Shown here: piece after piece, positions 484 to 29,717 of the stretch
Numbering within the stretch: position 1 is the first letter of the stretch
How the letters are laid out: each line of letters starts with the position of its first letter
Origin: Escherichia phage PHB12
Direction: 5' to 3' (one strand)
Sequence record: MK524178.1
DNA length: 64,000 nucleotides
Made by a program: the position numbers and the translations under genes
The notes under the pieces: model-generated
Databases searched by the model: none
Seen by the model: only the letters and a program-made list of their open reading frames with translations
Told to the model about the DNA's origin: nothing

Positions 484-954
484 TTAATCATGTTTCCACA
501 CCCCATCGGTATTTGACCAAAGTCGCTGATTATCTGATCCTCGCCACAGTTTTTTGGTCGGAAAATTTTTCTCATACTTCCCATCAATAATAACATCAAC
601 ATATTTAAGCATTTCTAGTTGTTTAATATCTTCAAACTTATATCCTGTCCACAACCAAATGCTTTTATTGGGATAAAGATTTTTTACTGTTTGAGCAATG
701 CAATGAACAACATCTCTGTTATCAGGATAGAGAGGGTCTCCTCCAGTTATAGTTAATCCTTCTATATAATCATTATTCAAACATTCAATTAATTGTTCTA
801 GCGTTTCATCCGTGAATGGAATACCATTTCTAGCATTCCATGTTGATTTATTATAACACCCTTCACATTTATGCAAACAACCTGTAACGAAAAGAACGAC
901 CCTGCATCCAGGGCCATTCACAAAATCGCAGGGATAAAATCTATCATAATTCAT
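484..954 (-). CDS. nrdG: anaerobic ribonucleotide reductase activating protein (radical SAM)
   Basis: 156 aa with cysteine cluster CLHKCEGC; overlaps the end of nrdD as in T4. Confidence 0.9.
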   Translation of the reverse strand: MNYDRFYPCDFVNGPGCRVVLFVTGCLHKCEGCYNKSTWNARNGIPFTDETLEQLIECLNNDYIEGLTITGGDPLYPDNRDVVHCIAQTVKNLYPNKSIWLWTGYKFEDIKQLEMLKYVDVIIDGKYEKNFPTKKLWRGSDNQRLWSNTDGVWKHD

Positions 955-2768
955 TGGTGTTTAACCCTATGCATGATTTCTTTATTTTTACCGAGATTAA
1001 ATCCGCGTTCGTTCGGATTTCCAAGATAACCGCATGTTCTTCTTATGGTGTTCATCTTTTTAGGATCAGTTTCTCCACAAACTGAACAAACAAATCCGTT
1101 TTCAGTAGGAGTCATTTCATGGGTACTTCCGCATGTAAAACATTTATCTACTGGCATGTTAACACCAAAATAATCTAAATGTTGCGCAGCATAATCCCAT
1201 ACGGCCTCAAGTCCTTTTAAGTTATTTTTCATATCAGGAAGTTCAACATAAGAAATGTGTCCGCCGGTCGCAATGAAATGATATGGTGCTTCGCGAGAAA
1301 TCTTTTCAAACGGAGTAATATTTTCTTCTACCGAAACGTGGAAACTATTAGTGTACCAGCCTTTATCAGTAACATCTTTTACACTTCCATATTTCTCAGT
1401 ATCAAGTTTACAGAAGCGATAGCACAGGTTTTCAGCGGGTGTAGAATACAAGCTAAAAGCAAAACCAGTTCTTTCGGTCCACTGCTTAAGACGAGCATTC
1501 ATTTTAGTTAAAATTTCTTGTCCAATATCACGACCGACAAGAATATTCAATTCGTGAATACCAATGTATCCTAAGGACACCGAACTTCTACCGTTTTTAA
1601 ATAACTCAATTATATCATCGTCAGGTTTCAGACGAACCCCAAATGCACCTTCTTGGTAAAGAATAGGAGCAACTGTTGCTTTAACTCCTTTTAATGAACT
1701 AATTCTACACATCAATGCTTCAAAACACAGATCCATTCGTTCATTAAATAGCTCAACAAATTTCTGTTCATTGAATTGTGTTCCAATATAAGAATCTAAC
1801 GCAATACGAGGAAGATTCAGTGTTACAACACCAAGATTATTACGTCCATCAAGAATTTCATTACCAGTCGAATCTTTCCATACACTCAAGAAACTACGAC
1901 AACCCATTGGAGAAACAGGAATAGATGAACCAGTGATAGCTTTATTGTTCTTAACTGAAATAATATCAGGATACATTCTTTTGCTTGCACACTCTAGAGC
2001 AAGCTGCTTAATATCATAGTTCGGGTCGTCTTTATAAAGATTGACACCCTCTTCAACGAACATAACAAGTTTAGGGAAAATAGGAGTTATTCCATCACGA
2101 CCAAGGCCTTTAATGCGGTTTTTAAGAATTGCCTTCTGAATCATTCGTTCAGTCCAATCGGTTCCCGTACCAAATGTAATTGTTACAAAAGGCGTTTGTC
2201 CGTTTGAACTAAAGAGAGTATTTACTTCATATTCATAAGCTTGGAATGCATCGTATACGTCTTTTTCTGTTTTAGATTGGGCATAATTCAACGCATCAGC
2301 GATTTGCCATTTTTCTGCATCCTCAATATGTTTTGCATAGGTGCGTTTAACATAAGGAGAAAGTACTTTATCTACATTCGCAAAAGTCGTTCCGCCATAT
2401 TGATGGGAAGCGACCTGTGCAGTAATTTGTGCCATAATTGCAGTAGCAACACCGATCGATTTAGGCGTTTCAATTTGAGCATTACCTAGCTTAAATCCGT
2501 TCTCAAGCATTCCTTTTAAATCTACTAAACAGCAATTAGTAAACGGAAGAGCAGGAGAATAATCAATATCATGGAAATGGATAATTCCGCTTTCATGTGC
2601 TTTCATAATAAAAGACGGGACCATATTTTTGGCAATGTGCTTAGACACAATACCAGCCATAAGGTCCCGTTGAGTTGGAAAAACACGAGAATCTTTATTA
2701 GCATTCTCGTTCAAAAGATCTTTATTAGTTTTATGAATTAATCCTTCAATTTCTTTTTCAATTTTCAT
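951..2768 (-). CDS. nrdD: anaerobic ribonucleoside-triphosphate reductase (class III)
   Basis: 605 aa; C-terminal glycyl-radical motif RRTCGYLG; uninterrupted reading frame. Confidence 0.92.
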   Translation of the reverse strand: MKIEKEIEGLIHKTNKDLLNENANKDSRVFPTQRDLMAGIVSKHIAKNMVPSFIMKAHESGIIHFHDIDYSPALPFTNCCLVDLKGMLENGFKLGNAQIETPKSIGVATAIMAQITAQVASHQYGGTTFANVDKVLSPYVKRTYAKHIEDAEKWQIADALNYAQSKTEKDVYDAFQAYEYEVNTLFSSNGQTPFVTITFGTGTDWTERMIQKAILKNRIKGLGRDGITPIFPKLVMFVEEGVNLYKDDPNYDIKQLALECASKRMYPDIISVKNNKAITGSSIPVSPMGCRSFLSVWKDSTGNEILDGRNNLGVVTLNLPRIALDSYIGTQFNEQKFVELFNERMDLCFEALMCRISSLKGVKATVAPILYQEGAFGVRLKPDDDIIELFKNGRSSVSLGYIGIHELNILVGRDIGQEILTKMNARLKQWTERTGFAFSLYSTPAENLCYRFCKLDTEKYGSVKDVTDKGWYTNSFHVSVEENITPFEKISREAPYHFIATGGHISYVELPDMKNNLKGLEAVWDYAAQHLDYFGVNMPVDKCFTCGSTHEMTPTENGFVCSVCGETDPKKMNTIRRTCGYLGNPNERGFNLGKNKEIMHRVKHQ

Positions 2769-3238
2769 TTTAAACTCTTTCTAAGCTGCTTTTTGAATGA
2801 AGCTATTAATTGTGTTTTGGTATCAGATTCATTATATTCAAATCCTCTTTGAAGCATCTCAGCCATCATTTCCTCTTTACCTAGTCTTGAGAACTCTTTA
2901 GTTTTGTCTGGAACAAAATTAGGATGGATATTATTATCAGAATAATCTTGTTTCAAATAAGCAAGAAGAGCTTCAAGCCATTCTAAGTAGTCAACGTTTT
3001 GTCCTTTCAAACCGGAACGGTTGAACTTATGCTTCATTTGGCCTTCTGCTGCGTTGCACAGATTACAGAGTAACCCACGAACTCTACCTGCTTTTGGCCC
3101 GTTTAATTCGTGGTCGTGGTCAAGATGGTTACCTTGAACATCAGGGTCTAATTCACGGTGGCAAATAGGACACTTACCATTCTGTGCATCATAAAATTTT
3201 TGTTTTTCTTCTTTATATTTTGCGCCTGATAATAACAT
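2765..3238 (-). CDS. 49: endonuclease VII (Holliday junction resolvase)
   Basis: 157 aa, near-identical to T4 gp49 as recalled (CPICHRELDPDVQGNHLDHDHELNGPKAG...). Confidence 0.93.
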   Translation of the reverse strand: MLLSGAKYKEEKQKFYDAQNGKCPICHRELDPDVQGNHLDHDHELNGPKAGRVRGLLCNLCNAAEGQMKHKFNRSGLKGQNVDYLEWLEALLAYLKQDYSDNNIHPNFVPDKTKEFSRLGKEEMMAEMLQRGFEYNESDTKTQLIASFKKQLRKSLK

Positions 3239-3243
3239 GATAA

Positions 3244-3276
3244 ACCCTTACCTTAAATAGATAAGGGTATTTATAA
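3244..3276 (-). promoter_or_regulatory. late promoter TATAAATA plus a stem-loop that sequesters the gene 49 Shine-Dalgarno
   Basis: Minus-sense TATAAATA sits directly upstream of inverted repeat ACCCTTA/TAAGGGT, whose 3' arm carries the SD (AAGGTAAGGG) before the ATG at 3238. Confidence 0.6.
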
Positions 3277-3277
3277 T

Positions 3278-3448
3278 TTAGTAAACGTTATAAAAGTTAC
3301 GATGAGAACGTTTAGCTTTGCGAAGCTGACGTTTAGTAGGACGAACTGTAAATGGTTGTCCAGAGAAAAAATTCGGATCGGTTTTAATAAGCAAATACCA
3401 ATCATGCTTGCCATTTTTTAATAAACGGTACAATAATTTAACTTGCAT
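3278..3448 (-). CDS. small basic protein (about 56 aa from the first in-frame ATG)
   Basis: ORF track frame (65 aa from TTG); first in-frame ATG gives MQVKLLYRLLK...; basic C-terminal tail. Confidence 0.4.
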   Translation of the reverse strand: MQVKLLYRLLKNGKHDWYLLIKTDPNFFSGQPFTVRPTKRQLRKAKRSHRNFYNVY

Positions 3449-3576
3449 AATAATCTCTTCCCATTTCCATATCAATTAATTCATTTATTGAAGGCTCATC
3501 ATAACATGTTTCTTCGTCGTTGTAAACTGTTTCGACGTCTGGCTCAACAGTCTCCCATCGAGCCGAATACCACGGT

Positions 3577-13713: not shown

Positions 13714-14016
13714 TTAGATAGATGTAGGCTCTAATTTTATTTTCATGAACTCGGCAAATTGTCTGGCAGTTTTTATGCCTTGTTCATGACATTCAAATGC
13801 ATCATCACAGGGGCTATTTTTGTAATGCTTTACCATATACTTATAGAATTTTTCAGAATTCTCGACATTTTGAATTTCAAACAAAGTATATACGTTTTTA
13901 ATCCCTGATTCCATAAAGTTATCAAAATATGGGTCGGTATACGCAGTGCCAACGATAGGAGTTGTTGCTGCAAAAAACCCCAGCATCGCCACAATGGCTA
14001 TCGCTCTTAAGGCCAT
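13714..14016 (-). CDS. rI: lysis inhibition regulator (antiholin)
   Basis: 100 aa; signal-anchor N-terminus and FMESGI...YKN.PC motifs resemble T4 RI as recalled. Confidence 0.85.
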   Translation of the reverse strand: MALRAIAIVAMLGFFAATTPIVGTAYTDPYFDNFMESGIKNVYTLFEIQNVENSEKFYKYMVKHYKNSPCDDAFECHEQGIKTARQFAEFMKIKLEPTSI

Positions 14017-14028
14017 ATAGGCCTCCTG

Positions 14029-14241
14029 TTAATTTTGGCCAGTATTTATTTTTCGCCTTTGGACGGCCTTAACATCTGCGAGGTATTTTTCCAGCTTACG
14101 CTTACGAGTATAATCTGCTTTAGAACCGGTTTGACGGATATCCTCATTTAAATGAGAAATAGAATGTCCTAATTCTCTTCGGATTTCATCCAATTGGGTT
14201 ACAGTAAGATTACGAAGTTGTCTTTCGTTTAATTGCTGCAT
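14029..14241 (-). CDS. hypothetical protein at the rI.1 position, 70 aa
   Basis: ORF track; sits between rI and tk. Confidence 0.5.
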
Positions 14242-14268
14242 ATATACCTCTTGGTTAGATATTAGTAT

Positions 14269-14850
14269 TTATAACAACCCTGTCAAATCATTCCAATGCT
14301 TCCGGCATAATGACACATATCTATCGGTGTCACCAATTTCAATTTGACTGCCATCTGTAATTGGAAGTCCGTCTTCAGTGACTCTAGCTACCATTGTGGC
14401 CTTTTTACCACAATGACAGACACCTTTAAGTTCAACAAGCTTATCGGCAATAGCCATTAATGCTTGAGAACCTTCAAATAGATTACCTTTAAAATCTGTT
14501 CGTAGTCCATATGCCATTACCGGCACATTGTATACGTCAACAATACGACTAAGTTGATACACCTTTTCAGTAGTTAAGAACTGAGCTTCGTCAACAAATA
14601 CACAATGAATATCCTTTTGTGCTGCAGCCCATTTATAGAATTCAAAGATATCCATGTCTTTTGTAATTATATTGGCGTCCTGACGAATACCAATACGAGA
14701 GACTATTTCACCTTTTGAATCGCGAGTATCAATAGCCGGTTTAAGAACTAATACACCCATGCCACGTTCTTTATAGTTATGTGCGGCAGTAAGTAATGAA
14801 GCAGACTTACCAGCGTTCATAGCGGCATATGTAAAAATTAAACTAGCCAT
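14269..14850 (-). CDS. tk: thymidine kinase
   Basis: 193 aa; P-loop MNAGKSASLL and C-terminal zinc cysteines (CHCGKKAT...CRKH). Confidence 0.92.
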   Translation of the reverse strand: MASLIFTYAAMNAGKSASLLTAAHNYKERGMGVLVLKPAIDTRDSKGEIVSRIGIRQDANIITKDMDIFEFYKWAAAQKDIHCVFVDEAQFLTTEKVYQLSRIVDVYNVPVMAYGLRTDFKGNLFEGSQALMAIADKLVELKGVCHCGKKATMVARVTEDGLPITDGSQIEIGDTDRYVSLCRKHWNDLTGLL

Positions 14851-15040
14851 AAGAGTCCTTAGTTAAATTTTCTAAATATGTTTCTAAATCATTTTCAGCT
14901 TTATCGATAGATTTTACTAATTCGTAGTATGTTTCAGCATCTCCATAATCCGAAGCCAATTCAAAAGATAAATCTCGTTCTAAACCAATAATTTCGCTGA
15001 TTAAAAATCGTATTTCATTCTTTTGTTCGCGAGTAATCAT
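14843..15040 (-). CDS. small acidic protein, 65 aa
   Basis: ORF track; translationally overlapped with its neighbours. Confidence 0.5.
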   Translation of the reverse strand: MITREQKNEIRFLISEIIGLERDLSFELASDYGDAETYYELVKSIDKAENDLETYLENLTKDSYG

Positions 15041-15228
15041 AAGGAATTTATATAATCAATAAGTTCTTGTTCTTTATCGTCGAAATCTTTACACAGTTCT
15101 TCATATTCATCGGTATTAAAAGGACCGCATTCATCACAAACTTTTTCCAATTCATTGTTTTTATCCATAACTTCATGAATAAGAGAAAACAGTCTGTCTT
15201 TTTGTTCTTTGCTTAAACTCATAACCAT
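15037..15228 (-). CDS. small acidic protein, 63 aa
   Basis: ORF track; overlapping start and stop with neighbours. Confidence 0.5.
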   Translation of the reverse strand: MVMSLSKEQKDRLFSLIHEVMDKNNELEKVCDECGPFNTDEYEELCKDFDDKEQELIDYINSL

Positions 15229-15446
15229 GTCACCTTTAAGCAGTATTCTTCTACATGTTGTTTACGACCTTTCTTATCAATAAAGGTATATTCAACGAAT
15301 GTTCCAATGTAGTCTTTATCTACATCATGTGGACTATTAATTGGGCATTTAGTACGACAAATGCGTTCCCATTGACGAATAATTACTGCCTTATTCTTTG
15401 GGTCGTATGGATGTGGATAATGTATATTCATAATAATGGTTCCCAA
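15219..15446 (-). CDS. small protein, 75 aa
   Basis: ORF track. Confidence 0.5.
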   Translation of the reverse strand: MGTIIMNIHYPHPYDPKNKAVIIRQWERICRTKCPINSPHDVDKDYIGTFVEYTFIDKKGRKQHVEEYCLKVTWL

Positions 15447-15925
15447 TCAACAATCACAATTTCTAGTTTAGTGGAATACGTATCTAAAATCTCTTCGATG
15501 ACAACCCAGTTTCCACCACCGATACCTGCACCAATTCTTGGCATATAAATTACAGGCTTTGTTATCTTATTCTTTCCGAATTCATTTAATTCTATTATAC
15601 AATTCATTAAAGCAAAGTACTCAAAATTAGGTCCCGGCTCAAACTGTGTATAAAGATTAAAGCAATAAGCTTTATGGGTCTTAAAATATTTTTCATAAAC
15701 CGAATAAGTCCCGAGTTTAGACTCGTCTCCGAATTCGGTTTGAAGTTTATCGGCTTCTAAAATTTTTGGATAAGCCTTTGCTAATTGTCCTGCCACACCA
15801 GCGCCCATTGTATGAAAACAATTACACCCATGAGCAATATTATTACCTTTAGAAAACAGGGCGACAATATCGCCCTTGATATAGTTTTTAATCACTTGCT
15901 GCAAGTCCTCTAGTATAAGAGTCAA
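15428..15925 (-). CDS. macro-domain-like protein (possible ADP-ribose binding or hydrolase), 165 aa
   Basis: Glycine-rich loops GNNIAHGCNC...MGAGVAGQLAKA and PRIGAGIGGGNW resemble macro-domain signatures; motif-level only. Confidence 0.4.
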   Translation of the reverse strand: MTLILEDLQQVIKNYIKGDIVALFSKGNNIAHGCNCFHTMGAGVAGQLAKAYPKILEADKLQTEFGDESKLGTYSVYEKYFKTHKAYCFNLYTQFEPGPNFEYFALMNCIIELNEFGKNKITKPVIYMPRIGAGIGGGNWVVIEEILDTYSTKLEIVIVDWEPLL

Positions 15926-16235
15926 CTAGACGGTCCACCATAGAATTGCATGCTGCCTTATCTTTAGGTTCCGCCACCGAGCATTCTAATATTTGCCATT
16001 TTTTATGATATCGTTTAATTAAGGTAGACGCCTTGAACCTACTAGACGCCCCATCTTTTTCTCCGTCTTTATATGCGTATAACAATTTTTGTGAAAAATC
16101 TACTTTACACTCTTGACTTTTACCACAATAATCAGATGCCGTTCTGTTTGTATACTCCGTTACATCAGTATATGTAGTATTAGCAAGAGCGTTAAATGAA
16201 ACCAAGCCAACTATTAAAGCCAACATTTTGGTCAT
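15888..16235 (-). CDS. secreted protein with signal peptide, 115 aa
   Basis: N-terminal signal-like MTKMLALIVGLVSFNALA. Confidence 0.5.
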   Translation of the reverse strand: MTKMLALIVGLVSFNALANTTYTDVTEYTNRTASDYCGKSQECKVDFSQKLLYAYKDGEKDGASSRFKASTLIKRYHKKWQILECSVAEPKDKAACNSMVDRLVDSYTRGLAASD

Positions 16236-16774
16236 TCTTTTATTTCCAGTAGTTTATTTGATTTAAGGTAATTAGCCTTTTCTAGGACTTCAGAAGCATA
16301 TTTACTTCCAGCACTTGTCTTCCATCCCGCATTATATGAGGATATAGCTTTTCTTATATCCCCGTTATGTATATTTAACCAATAAGAAAATTCGATATAA
16401 GCCCATCTGGCTGAATTAGACCGCTTAGATAGCATTTTCTTAATTTGGGCATCAGTCATATTATAACCAAGCTGGTTAATTCTTGCCCTCATTGTCGGTA
16501 GATAATTTTGGAACATTCCATACGCATGGTGACCTTTCTTATCTTTAAGATTAATACCGGCAGATGATTCCTGCCATAGTATTGCGGCCATTATGTATCC
16601 AAGTCCTTTCTTATGCATATTTTCATGCGTTTTAAATTTTCCATCCTTAGAAAACTGTTCCCCAAACTGATAAGCATAATTCAAGTTATCGAGTTGGACA
16701 TTACTAAAAGTATGCTCGGAGCTATGTGCTGATAACGAAAGAGCAAATAGACCAGCGAGTAGTGCTTTTCTCAT
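16232..16774 (-). CDS. secreted lytic-transglycosylase-like protein, 180 aa
   Basis: Signal peptide plus SLT-type catalytic motif AILWQESSAG. Confidence 0.6.
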   Translation of the reverse strand: MRKALLAGLFALSLSAHSSEHTFSNVQLDNLNYAYQFGEQFSKDGKFKTHENMHKKGLGYIMAAILWQESSAGINLKDKKGHHAYGMFQNYLPTMRARINQLGYNMTDAQIKKMLSKRSNSARWAYIEFSYWLNIHNGDIRKAISSYNAGWKTSAGSKYASEVLEKANYLKSNKLLEIKE

Positions 16775-16782
16775 GTTTACCT

Positions 16783-17241
16783 CTAGATTTTAATCACTGC
16801 TTTAGAAGCTTTTCCTGGTAGTCGTTTATTGTTAATAATAGCCATTCTGCATTGAAGAGTCTTCATTTTGAATGCTGGATTTTCACGACAAACTGTAAGT
16901 CCTAACCAAAGATTTCCATCAGTTATTTCTAAACGGCCTGGGCGATATTCGACACCTTCGACAAAATCTTCATCAACATCTGGACGGGCCGGCATTGATA
17001 AAAATTCTGCAACTTCTTTAACATGATTTTTTACTTTACGAAATAATTCAAAAACGTAGTTCTCATCTATTTCTCTCTGGATGGCACGATCTAAGAGATG
17101 TTGAGAATACTTGATATGAAAGCCTGGTAGTCCAAGAGACTTTGCAGCATCTTTTATACCGGCATTTATTTTGCGGAACTCCGTTTCAAAGATTCGACGG
17201 AGTTTATTACGGCGGATAAAAACGTCTGAATTGATAGTCAT
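16783..17241 (-). CDS. regB: RegB site-specific endoribonuclease
   Basis: 152 aa; MTINSDVFIRRNKLRR...LQCRMAIINNKRLPGKASKAVIKI closely matches T4 RegB as recalled. Confidence 0.9.
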   Translation of the reverse strand: MTINSDVFIRRNKLRRIFETEFRKINAGIKDAAKSLGLPGFHIKYSQHLLDRAIQREIDENYVFELFRKVKNHVKEVAEFLSMPARPDVDEDFVEGVEYRPGRLEITDGNLWLGLTVCRENPAFKMKTLQCRMAIINNKRLPGKASKAVIKI

Positions 17242-17302
17242 TTTGATTTCTCCTCTAGTTGACAGGTCTATAGTAACACAACTAGAGGAGAAGTAAACTA
17301 CT

Positions 17303-17518
17303 TTATTGATAAAATGGAGTTAAAGCCCAAGATTCTTTAGATACCATGTTGGCGAAATGCCTCATCTCTTCGATTTGGCGACGACGCTGGTCAGCATAGT
17401 CTTCTTCGCCTTCTTCCTTACAATCTTCAAGGTCTTCTTCAAGATACTTTAAGTATTCACTACAAATTTTGTTGACCTTTTCTTGAAAGTCCAATAACCC
17501 AGTAATAGTAGAAGCCAT
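17303..17518 (-). CDS. small acidic protein, 71 aa
   Basis: ORF track; own early-promoter cassette upstream. Confidence 0.5.
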   Translation of the reverse strand: MASTITGLLDFQEKVNKICSEYLKYLEEDLEDCKEEGEEDYADQRRRQIEEMRHFANMVSKESWALTPFYQ

Positions 17519-17784
17519 TAGTATTTTTCCTCAGGTCGAAATACTGCACGACATGCCCACATGCTGGCTTCTTTTAGATGTTGCTTAGCATACTTAAGAG
17601 CCTGCACTGCATCCATATCTTCTTTGGTTTGTTGCTCTGATTCATTTTCTTTCAAGATATATGCTTCTTCAATCAGAGCATCAAACATCAATCCAAGACG
17701 GACTTCTGCATCTTTAATAGCGTTCACTTTACTGATTTTATCATCGGTATGCGGCTTGTAGCCTTTGATGTCTTCAATCGACAT
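17518..17784 (-). CDS. vs.4: Vs.4-like protein (Acb2 cyclic-nucleotide sponge family), 88 aa
   Basis: Internal ATG with SD GAGGAAAT; MSIEDIKGYKPHTDDKISKVNAIKDAEVRLG...KEASMWACRAVFRPEEKY resembles T4 Vs.4 as recalled; position between regB and the YfiD-like gene. Confidence 0.7.
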   Translation of the reverse strand: MSIEDIKGYKPHTDDKISKVNAIKDAEVRLGLMFDALIEEAYILKENESEQQTKEDMDAVQALKYAKQHLKEASMWACRAVFRPEEKY

Positions 17785-17998
17785 AAGGAATTTCCTCATC
17801 GGTGGCAAGGTCATATTCGACCAATTGGATAGGCTCGTTAATACCATATCCACGTACAGTGATATCGGTTGTCGGATATTTTCCAGTAATATCACCCATT
17901 CTAAATGCTTCAGTGAATGATTGCTCGCCTGAGCAACTAAACCAGGCGGCAAAACATTTTAAAACATCTTCAGACCCTTCTATAATCAATTTAGCCAT
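17774..17998 (-). CDS. small protein, 74 aa
   Basis: ORF track; stop overlaps the vs.4 start. Confidence 0.5.
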   Translation of the reverse strand: MAKLIIEGSEDVLKCFAAWFSCSGEQSFTEAFRMGDITGKYPTTDITVRGYGINEPIQLVEYDLATDEEIPYVD

Positions 17999-18360
17999 TA
18001 TAGACTCTCAGTAAAGGTACGAGCGATAACGTCGCGTTGCTGTTCTGGAGTCAGAGAGTTAAAGCGAACTGCATAACCGGATACACGGATGGTCAGCTGT
18101 GGATATTTTTCCGGATGCTTAACTGCATCTTCCAGAGTTTCACGACGCAGAACGTTAACGTTCAGATGTTGACCACCTTCAATTTTAACTTTAGGTTGAT
18201 GTTCAATTTCAATTTCACGGGCATTCAAACCGTAGAAAATTTCCGGGTCTACAATAGCGTCTTCTTTAAAAGTCTTAGAGACGATAATCCGGGCTTGAGT
18301 ACCGTCTTCAAAATAAATAGTGCCTTTATGTGCACCTTCAAGAATTTGATATGCTTTCAT
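17998..18360 (-). CDS. glycyl-radical spare-part protein (YfiD/GrcA-like)
   Basis: C-terminal two thirds match E. coli YfiD as recalled, including RVSGYAVRF. Confidence 0.85.
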
Positions 18361-18366
18361 ATAACC

Positions 18367-18675
18367 TCAATTAGAAAATAAATTTATCCAAGATTTTTCT
18401 TTAATCAAAAATGGGTCGGAATTAAACGCCATTAAACTTTGAGTGATTAATCCCTTAAATGGCCCATCAATAAATTCCATTTTGAAATGTGGAATACTAG
18501 TCATCAACCGTGCATTAGGAGCAGTACAAAGAACGTGCTGCCCTGCGAACGGACCTTTAGTCAAACGATATCGTTTAGGTTTAAAATGGTAAATCTCGTA
18601 ATTTTCTACAAGAGCCCTTTTATTGCATACTGGGCTGTTATAACAATACTCAAAAACTTCAATAGTGGTCATCAT
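18367..18675 (-). CDS. hypothetical protein (about 102 aa from the internal ATG)
   Basis: ORF track frame; likely start MMTTIEVFEY. Confidence 0.45.
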   Translation of the reverse strand: MMTTIEVFEYCYNSPVCNKRALVENYEIYHFKPKRYRLTKGPFAGQHVLCTAPNARLMTSIPHFKMEFIDGPFKGLITQSLMAFNSDPFLIKEKSWINLFSN

Positions 18676-19211
18676 TGCATTCCAATCACAAAAAATTGAG
18701 GACGAGCAATACCGCCGATGCAATATTTGCTTTTGCAGCAGTGCTGTACTGATTTAATATGGACATTGTAAATCTTATCCATATCAGGAGCTTTAATAGG
18801 CTCGTCAATTATATACAGAATACGAGAAAGCGTTAATCCACGGAATTTAGAACCTTCATTGCCAATAAAACTACGGACAGAATCAGTAAATAAACGGAAT
18901 CGAATATCATCGCTAGAATAACGAGAAAATTCTTTTTTAATGTTGCCAACAGAAATTTTAGCATAAGCTGAAGTATTAGAAAGAACAATAACTGTTCCAC
19001 CGTCGTACAGCCAATTAACAGCAAAATTAGTTACTGCGGTCGATTTACCTGATTGTCTGCCGCCGTCTAAACGAAGTGTACAGTACTGCTTGAGTACGTC
19101 TTCAAATGGCGGGATATAACCATTCTTACAAATTTCTTCTACTCTAGCATCAGAATGGTGTGTAAAAGCATTCATCAGGGATAGATAAGGTCCGGTTAAA
19201 AATGTTCTCAT
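18672..19211 (-). CDS. small P-loop NTPase, 179 aa
   Basis: Walker A GGRQSGKST and Walker-B-like ILYIIDEP. Confidence 0.6.
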   Translation of the reverse strand: MRTFLTGPYLSLMNAFTHHSDARVEEICKNGYIPPFEDVLKQYCTLRLDGGRQSGKSTAVTNFAVNWLYDGGTVIVLSNTSAYAKISVGNIKKEFSRYSSDDIRFRLFTDSVRSFIGNEGSKFRGLTLSRILYIIDEPIKAPDMDKIYNVHIKSVQHCCKSKYCIGGIARPQFFVIGMQ

Positions 19212-29560: not shown

Positions 29561-29637
<77 letters not shown>

Positions 29638-29643
29638 AATATA

Positions 29644-29717
29644 TGACCCAGACCAGATTCGAACTGGTAACCTTTCCCTTATGAGGGGACTGCTGCTAAC
29701 CGTTGAGCTACAGGGCC
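29644..29717 (-). tRNA. tRNA with anticodon CAT (Ile-lysidine or Met type)
   Basis: T-arm ACCAG-TTCGAAT-CTGGT and anticodon loop CTCATAA; acceptor and D stems each carry one mismatch in my hand fold. Confidence 0.5.

Follow-up and report, generated by a model that had tools for sequence, protein, structure and literature searches.

A Mosigvirus-type ortholog of T4 tk.4 (adfM) encodes a predicted single macro domain that probably shields phage DNA from DarT2

In this study, a minus-strand gene in a stretch of Escherichia phage PHB12 DNA (MK524178.1; the window, that is, the whole 64,000 nucleotides analyzed) was assigned with high confidence, on sequence identity and gene order, as orthologous to tk.4 of phage T4, for which the name adfM (anti-DarT factor macrodomain) was recently introduced. 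Its product, Tk.4, is predicted with similarly high confidence, from profile matches and a structural model, to be a single macro domain and nothing else, and it probably shields the phage DNA from the host toxin DarT2 by taking ADP-ribose off its thymidines. The macro-domain guess made in the first-pass annotation is correct, although the gene had been described before.

The extent of the gene was determined first from the open reading frame at 15428-15925, to which the first-pass annotation had assigned the whole protein. That frame is real, being confirmed on the minus strand with 165 codons counted from a TTG, but its extent did not hold, as the gene more likely occupies 15428-15895 from a GTG. 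Because T4 tk.4 has an ATG at the homologous position, immediately preceded by an in-frame TAG, the nearest database homologs of the window protein are 155 aa long, and relatives carry tk.4 annotated as a 468-nt CDS, the GTG at 15895, giving a protein of 155 aa, is most likely the true start, and a start at the TTG at 15925 was rejected. The 30-nt extension up to this TTG is missing from T4 and from the nearest database homologs, and its 10 extra codons are the 3′ end of vs read in another frame; the GTG start of tk.4 overlaps the end of vs, the stop codon of which (TAA) lies at 15890-15888. A GAGGA found by inspection 10 nt upstream of the GTG would serve as the ribosome-binding site. The gene and its neighbors are located as follows.

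15428..15895, minus strand: tk.4 / adfM coding sequence, 155 codons plus the TGA stop at 15430-15428
15893..15895, minus strand: probable GTG start codon, with the T4 ATG at the homologous position and a 468-nt CDS in relatives
15906..15910, minus strand: GAGGA, Shine-Dalgarno-like, putative ribosome-binding site of tk.4
15896..15925, minus strand: TTG-started extension of 30 nt, part of the mechanical longest open reading frame and most likely outside tk.4
15219..15431, minus strand: tk.3, downstream neighbor, from the sequence and the annotation of relatives
15888..16235, minus strand: vs (valyl-tRNA synthetase modifier), upstream neighbor, from the open reading frame list and the T4, moskry, and SQ17 annotation
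14269..14850, minus strand: tk (thymidine kinase), from the open reading frame list and the annotation of relatives

The orthology to T4 tk.4 was concluded because the two proteins are identical over their full length at 83% and their genes stand in the same order. In detail, the window protein and T4 Tk.4 (NP_049723) share 129 of 155 residues in a gapless alignment (E=2e-102), and the window, T4, moskry, and SQ17 all have the order regB, vs.1, vs, tk.4, tk.3, tk.2, tk.1, tk, rI.1, rI. The regB-vs-tk block is transcribed from the minus strand of the window, and the position of tk.4 in the regB-tk block, between vs and tk.3, is conserved with T4. The gene had been described as lying next to tk, which is inaccurate, as tk.3, tk.2, and tk.1 intervene and the end of tk is 578 bp away. 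The genes of the block lie close together; the tk.3 ATG (15431-15429) shares bases with the tk.4 TGA stop, and because of this stop/start overlap (ATGA at 15431-15428) the two genes are probably translationally coupled. A promoter scan of 14000-19000 returned 13 sigma-70-like sites, fewer than in shuffled sequence (19.0 +/- 4.2), and an Rfam scan of the whole window returned two tRNAs only and nothing close to tk.4.

The 3.3 kb around tk.4 showed 97-98.5% DNA identity to many Escherichia/Shigella Mosigvirus phages (Straboviridae, Tevenvirinae), including vB_EcoM_SQ17, moskry, HX01, and SF, and by this identity the window belongs to a Mosigvirus-type T-even phage, while T4 is a Tequatrovirus. 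The window protein was 97% identical to the SQ17 ortholog. Compared with T4 Tk.4, it has the same block position and the same motifs, including Gln84, but differs by 26 substitutions, one of which places Gly127 in loop 2 where T4 has Lys (GIGGGNW vs. GIGKGNW), and its gene starts with GTG where that of T4 starts with ATG. The family of the window protein is common among phages, being present by tblastn in 2,788 of 50,697 phage records. The T4 GenBank record describes tk.4 as ‘phosphatase; contains A1pp phosphatase motif’, and several relatives label it ‘macro domain protein’.

Glycine-rich loops resembling the ADP-ribose-binding loops of macro domains were what had originally led to the macro-domain call, and two checks had been named by which the call could fail, a search against macro profiles and a structure prediction. 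Both bore it out, well above what chance would give. In the profile search, Pfam Macro (PF01661) matched residues 32-141 of the 165-aa query with 23.8 bits (E=4.6e-5), above the curated gathering cut-off of 22 bits, and PHROG 335 was matched with E=4.8e-65. The best PDB sequence matches, BT1257, Poa1p, SCO6735, DarG, and TARG1/OARD1, were all macrodomains, with BT1257 and Poa1p in the lead (E=4.6e-10 and 2.5e-8, respectively), and a profile built from 68 homologs improved the PDB macrodomain matches to E=2e-18 to 1e-11. An hhalign comparison of the phage family with a DarG/TARG1 profile gave a probability of 99.5%. The AlphaFold2 model computed on the 68-homolog alignment had a mean pLDDT of 95.2 and a pTM of 0.90; its strands and helices alternate, in a predicted three-layer alpha/beta/alpha macro fold with a central mixed beta-sheet. 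When this model was compared with the PDB by Foldseek, the TARG1, Poa1p, BT1257, and DarG macrodomains were the top hits, with a probability of 1.00 and TM values of 0.67-0.79, and among the 143 matches at E<=0.001, the best 50 were macrodomains or macro-scaffold designs.

The function of the T4 ortholog has been addressed by genetics. In a T4 transposon library screened on a DarTG2-expressing host (HIDEN-SEQ), tk.4 alone was a significant hit (10.1101/2025.11.20.689424), and a clean T4 tk.4 knock-out was sensitized to DarTG2, upon which the gene was renamed adfM (bioRxiv 10.1101/2025.11.20.689424, November 2025). A further anti-DarT factor was to be expected, since T4 lacking adfA and adfN is still resistant to DarTG2 (PMC11825919). 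Removal of ADP-ribose from DNA was inferred in the T4 preprint, where it is graded ‘seems likely’ (10.1101/2025.11.20.689424). That phage macro proteins are used against DarT2 follows from PhiKZ gp104, also named AdfM, which in vitro frees an oligonucleotide of the ADP-ribose added by DarT2 (PMC13309987). In the mechanism proposed here, host DarT2 of the DarTG2 system attaches ADP-ribose to thymidines in single-stranded phage DNA, Tk.4/AdfM would bind the thymidine-linked ADP-ribose and hydrolyze it off, and with its removal the phage genome could replicate again. That Tk.4/AdfM counters DarTG2 is held with good confidence, and that its protection works through DNA de-ADP-ribosylation with moderate confidence. 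The phenotype of tk.4 loss on DarTG2 was measured in T4 (Tequatrovirus) only (10.1101/2025.11.20.689424), and the 83%-identical ortholog of the window would be expected to do as T4 Tk.4 does. Reversal of a host ADP-ribosylation-based defense, a role suggested in the first-pass annotation, fits well with the DarTG2 sensitivity of the T4 tk.4 knock-out (10.1101/2025.11.20.689424).

To locate the active site, the window protein was aligned with DarG and TARG1, and conservation was counted over 122 aligned family sequences, of which 121 were ungapped at some columns. Two glycine-rich stretches of the 155-aa protein, HTMGAGVAGQ (residues 28-37, with MGAGVA at residues 30-35) and PRIGAGIGGGNW (residues 119-130), aligned column for column with loops 1 and 2 of TARG1 and DarG, so that the resemblance first noted from the letters is upheld. 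For loop 1, the window MGAGVA stands against RMGAGIA in TARG1 and VMGKGVA in DarG, and for loop 2, PRIGAGIGGGNW against PRIGCGLDRLQW and PPLGAGNGGLPW, respectively. The motifs lie at the following positions.

15791..15832, minus strand: H-G-C-N-C motif and loop 1, HGCNCFHTMGAGVA (residues 22-35), aligned with DarG VNTVNTVGVMGKGVA and with TARG1 loop 1
15644..15658, minus strand: NLYTQ (residues 80-84), with Gln84 at the position of the DarG/TARG1 catalytic Lys
15506..15541, minus strand: loop 2 (residues 119-130), aligned with the DarG and TARG1 loops given above

Residues 22-35 are expected from these alignments to form the ADP-ribose pocket and residues 119-130 the diphosphate-binding loop. 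H22 was kept in 119 and N25 in all 121 of the ungapped sequences, G33 and A35 in 122/122 family sequences, and P119, I121, G122, and G124 in 121/121 ungapped sequences, with W130 in 120 of 121. N80, Y82, and Q84 were invariant (122/122). The conserved Asn, N25 here, corresponds to DarG N22 (T. aquaticus) and to PhiKZ N23, mutation of which lowers the activity of PhiKZ AdfM (PMC13309987).

The NLYTQ strand was placed against DarG NFPTK and TARG1 LITK in HMM, profile-profile, and MAFFT alignments, with Gln84 on the catalytic Lys of DarG (T. aquaticus K80) and TARG1 (K84), the T-K motif of which has been defined previously (PMC8120803). The phmmer alignment with Poa1p around this strand breaks at residue 89. 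Because the lysine is an invariant Gln84 throughout the family, the lysine chemistry of DarG and TARG1 is impossible for Tk.4. The TARG1 Asp125 column holds Gly126 in the window protein and Ala in most family members, and a TARG1-type Lys84/Asp125 dyad was rejected on both exchanges (K84 to Gln84, D125 to Gly126). As a precedent for hydrolysis without the Lys/Asp dyad, SCO6735, a TARG1-class macrodomain, lacks it and still hydrolyzes ADP-ribose (PMC8120803).

The missing dyad is also the starting point of a non-catalytic explanation, in which Tk.4 would neutralize DarT2 either by binding and covering ADP-ribosylated DNA or by attaching to DarT2 itself, the latter in the manner of the small inhibitors AdfA and AdfB, which bind DarT (PMC11825919); certain macrodomains are moreover readers only (PMC9503650). 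We consider this highly improbable. H22, N25, N80, Y82, and Q84 are conserved around the distal-ribose site, as is typical of enzymes, SCO6735 shows that the dyad is dispensable for hydrolysis (PMC8120803), and the close relative Adpp is catalytic (10.64898/2026.01.28.702374). Toxin binding is further disfavored in that Tk.4, with 155 aa against the 346-356 aa of DarG, is without the C-terminal DarT-binding domain of the latter. Enzymatic removal of ADP-ribose from the DNA is preferred.

The relationship of Tk.4 to DarG itself was then evaluated. A plasmid search yielded two DarTG2 loci for reference, in both of which a DUF4433 DarT gene precedes a DarG of 346-356 aa, and these two plasmid DarGs in turn led to the DarG macrodomains of T. 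aquaticus and M. tuberculosis; the other matches of the plasmid search were mostly generic macro proteins. With the NCBIfam DarG equivalog model NF048014, the cut-off of which is 250 bits, the two genuine DarGs scored 466 and 392 bits and PhiKZ gp104 (AdfM) 137.8 bits, and the window protein scored 27.8, T4 Tk.4 30.3, and Adpp of Vibrio phage Gary 34.9 bits. Since Adpp, a phosphatase, scores near Tk.4, the DarG model cannot separate the two activities. Similar to the window protein, the DarG macrodomains (T. aquaticus 5M31/5M3E and M. tuberculosis 5M3I) belong to the TARG1/ALC1-like class, have the same fold (TM 0.72-0.78), and keep loops 1 and 2 and the Asn (N22 in T. aquaticus, N25 here), and thymidine-linked ADP-ribose on ssDNA is the presumed common substrate. 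However, the window protein is only 19-21% identical to them and has Gln in place of Lys80. The C-terminal DarT-binding domain is absent from the window protein, which is a single domain of 155 aa, and no DarT (DUF4433) gene lies beside tk.4, the adjoining genes being vs and tk.3. Membership in DarG was rejected on the score (27.8 vs. 250 bits), the C-terminal domain, the neighborhood, and the Lys-to-Gln exchange together.

PhiKZ gp104 resembles the window protein in being a phage single macro domain directed against DarTG2 (Cell Rep 2026, PMC13309987) and in belonging to PHROG 335. It differs in being a true DarG-like macrodomain that retains FPTK with its Lys, and its resemblance to the window protein is barely recognizable, at 24 bits over 23 residues. 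By this comparison, the two proteins named AdfM are separate acquisitions or macro subfamilies. PHROG 335 spans Tk.4, Adpp, and PhiKZ gp104 and does not separate the subfamilies.

Among biochemically characterized proteins, the nearest to the window protein is Vibrio phage Gary Adpp (KNV71_gp137), at about 36-37% identity; the Achelous Adpp ortholog, 98.7% identical to that of Gary, matched the window protein with 37% identity (E=2e-23), and a tblastn search of Gary with the window protein gave E=4.5e-18. Adpp shares with it AHxCNCF, NxYxQ, and GxG(I/L)(A/G)GG(D/N)W, the Gln in place of the DarG Lys, and PHROG 335, and differs in having seven additional residues inserted behind the NxYxQ strand. 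Yeast Poa1p (6LFQ-6LFU) and Bacteroides BT1257 (2FG1/2AFC) also carry the H-x-C-N motif and match with TM 0.75-0.79, and BT1257 has Gln at the DarG Lys position, as the window protein does; they differ in being cellular proteins, 24-26% identical to the window protein. The substrate of Poa1p is a tRNA-splicing by-product, and to our knowledge BT1257 has no known function.

These relatives raise the alternative that Tk.4 is mainly an ADP-ribose-1''-phosphate phosphatase like Poa1p and Adpp, disposing of or recycling a soluble product of NAD+ breakdown, such as that released by RES-type NAD+ phosphorylases, and not acting on DNA. Adpp, with its active-site motifs in common with Tk.4, is a Poa1p-like phosphatase that converts ADPR-1''P to ADPR (10.64898/2026.01.28.702374), Poa1p ranks high in both the sequence and the fold comparisons, the T4 record names a phosphatase with an A1pp motif, and the catalytic Lys of DarG is missing in the Tk.4 family. 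In its own phages, however, the Adpp gene is flanked by Adps and Namat in ‘NARP1-AP’ operons, and its product acts with theirs against the aRES NAD+-phosphorylase defense (10.64898/2026.01.28.702374), and Adpp is useful solely within this three-gene operon. In tblastn searches with the Gary proteins, neither the window nor the whole SQ17 genome (166 kb) showed Adps or Namat of NARP1 (best E>1), and the SQ17 annotation likewise shows no NARP1 genes. A role like that of Adpp in NARP1-AP was therefore rejected for the window phage, since Adpp serves only together with NARP1 and neither the window nor SQ17 has NARP1. No second macro gene or DarG-like paralog was found, the window and SQ17 having one macro gene each. 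The phosphatase explanation also leaves the DarTG2-specific sensitivity of the T4 knock-out unexplained, as DarTG2 makes no ADPR-1''P, and as a main function it is considered unlikely. Phosphatase activity and DNA de-ADP-ribosylation are nevertheless compatible, and phosphatase activity in vitro would leave the preferred explanation, DNA de-ADP-ribosylation, standing.

Tentatively, Tk.4/AdfM and Adpp may form one lysine-less family with a candidate common active site of H22, N25, N80, Y82, and Q84. Its members may be bifunctional, combining ADPR-1''-phosphate phosphatase with thymidine-ADP-ribose DNA glycohydrolase activity, or else the T4-type AdfM may cut the thymidine N-glycosidic bond in a way unlike the Lys80 chemistry of DarG. 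If this is true, a single small protein could give the phage protection from two NAD+-based defenses unrelated to each other, and calling the T-even protein a ‘DarG-like orphan antitoxin’ would misstate its mechanism.

A role inside the phage's own program was weighed as well, namely, that Tk.4 reverses or trims the ADP-ribosylation (or RNAylation) of host proteins by Alt, ModA, and ModB, or erases ADP-ribose from RNA. Removal of arginine-linked ADP-ribose is carried out by DraG/ARH-type enzymes, and we know of no macrodomain with arginine-ADP-ribose as its substrate. SQ17, the closest relative genome, does encode ModA, ModB, and Alt, and macro domains in general can act on protein- or nucleic-acid-linked ADP-ribose (PMC9503650). 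Alt, ModA, and ModB target arginine, however (PMC8120803), which makes such a role chemically unlikely, and alt and mod lie outside the window, unlinked to tk.4. CmdTAC, which ADP-ribosylates mRNA, robustly defends against T-even phages that carry tk.4 (PMC11618068), and therefore Tk.4 is not a general eraser of nucleic-acid ADP-ribosylation. DarTG2 is moreover the only condition reported for tk.4 in the T4 screen (10.1101/2025.11.20.689424). This role is thus regarded as extremely improbable, and the suggestion in the first-pass annotation that the protein processes substrates of the phage's own transferases found no support.

For annotation, these results indicate that the public labels ‘phosphatase’, ‘macro domain protein’, and ‘hypothetical protein’ denote one gene, the correct name for which is tk.4/adfM and the most likely start of which in this phage is the GTG at 15895. 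Slightly beyond the literature, the T-even AdfM, without the DarG lysine, is nearer to Adpp than to DarG or PhiKZ AdfM. With Tk.4/AdfM directed against DarTG2, and AdfA and AdfN against DarTG1, T-even phages would carry stacked counter-defenses against DarTG immunity.

In the literature, the name AdfM has been given to two distinct macro-domain subfamilies, represented by T4 Tk.4 and by PhiKZ gp104, and the pairwise similarity between these two proteins was barely detectable. The T4 member, which is the ortholog of the protein encoded by tk.4 in the window, is encoded at:

L002 (phage T4) 4923-5390, tk.4

Scored against the DarG model (NCBIfam NF048014), T4 Tk.4 reached 30 bits and has a Gln where the catalytic Lys is expected, while PhiKZ gp104 reached 138 bits and retains the catalytic Lys.

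Within tk.4 itself, a terminator-like hairpin was flagged at:

15858-15876, minus strand, terminator-like hairpin within codons 7-13 of tk.4

This element comprises an 8-bp GC-rich hairpin, AGGGCGAtatTGTCGCCCT, followed by a T-rich tail, and GGGCGATATTGTCGCCC is also found in T4 tk.4. The conserved peptide KGDIVAL may be the sole reason for the hairpin sequence in tk.4.

Public labels for the macro-domain gene vary by record among 'phosphatase', 'macro domain protein' and 'hypothetical protein', and those of the genes around it are likewise erratic. In phage moskry, vs.1 carries the label 'endoribonuclease RegB' and tk.3 that of 'putative ABC transporter ATP-binding protein' (annotation coordinates concerned, L001 4220-4432 and 5233-5775). 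In the mechanical ORF list of the window, tk.3 was given as:

15219-15446, minus strand, tk.3 ORF of 75 aa with a TTG start at 15446

In relatives, tk.3 is annotated as 213 nt, from the ATG at window position 15431, and this ATG shares bases with the stop codon of tk.4 in the sequence ATGA.

Elsewhere in the window, nrdD is a single uninterrupted 605-aa ORF (951-2768, minus strand), whereas in SQ17, the closest complete relative, it is annotated as two pieces with a GIY-YIG homing endonuclease gene between them (L007 45842-48704). An Rfam scan of the whole window found no group I intron, and its sole matches were two adjacent tRNA genes; a counterpart of T4 vs.6, which the T4 and moskry records label a GrcA-like autonomous glycyl radical cofactor, is also present:

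29564-29637, minus strand, tRNA gene (Rfam)
29644-29717, minus strand, tRNA gene (Rfam)
17998-18360, minus strand, 120-aa ORF, vs.6 counterpart

The reference DarT-DarG (DarTG2) loci are both plasmid-borne:

L003 (Meiothermus taiwanensis plasmid) 1848-3541, DarT-DarG locus
L004 (Mycobacterium intracellulare plasmid) 2356-3562, DarT-DarG locus

In the annotation of the Mycobacterium plasmid, DarT appears as a remnant of just 126 nt. On the Meiothermus plasmid, DarT-DarG is adjoined by the S subunit gene of a restriction-modification system and by an AAA ATPase/DUF4276 pair, and these surroundings look like a defence island.
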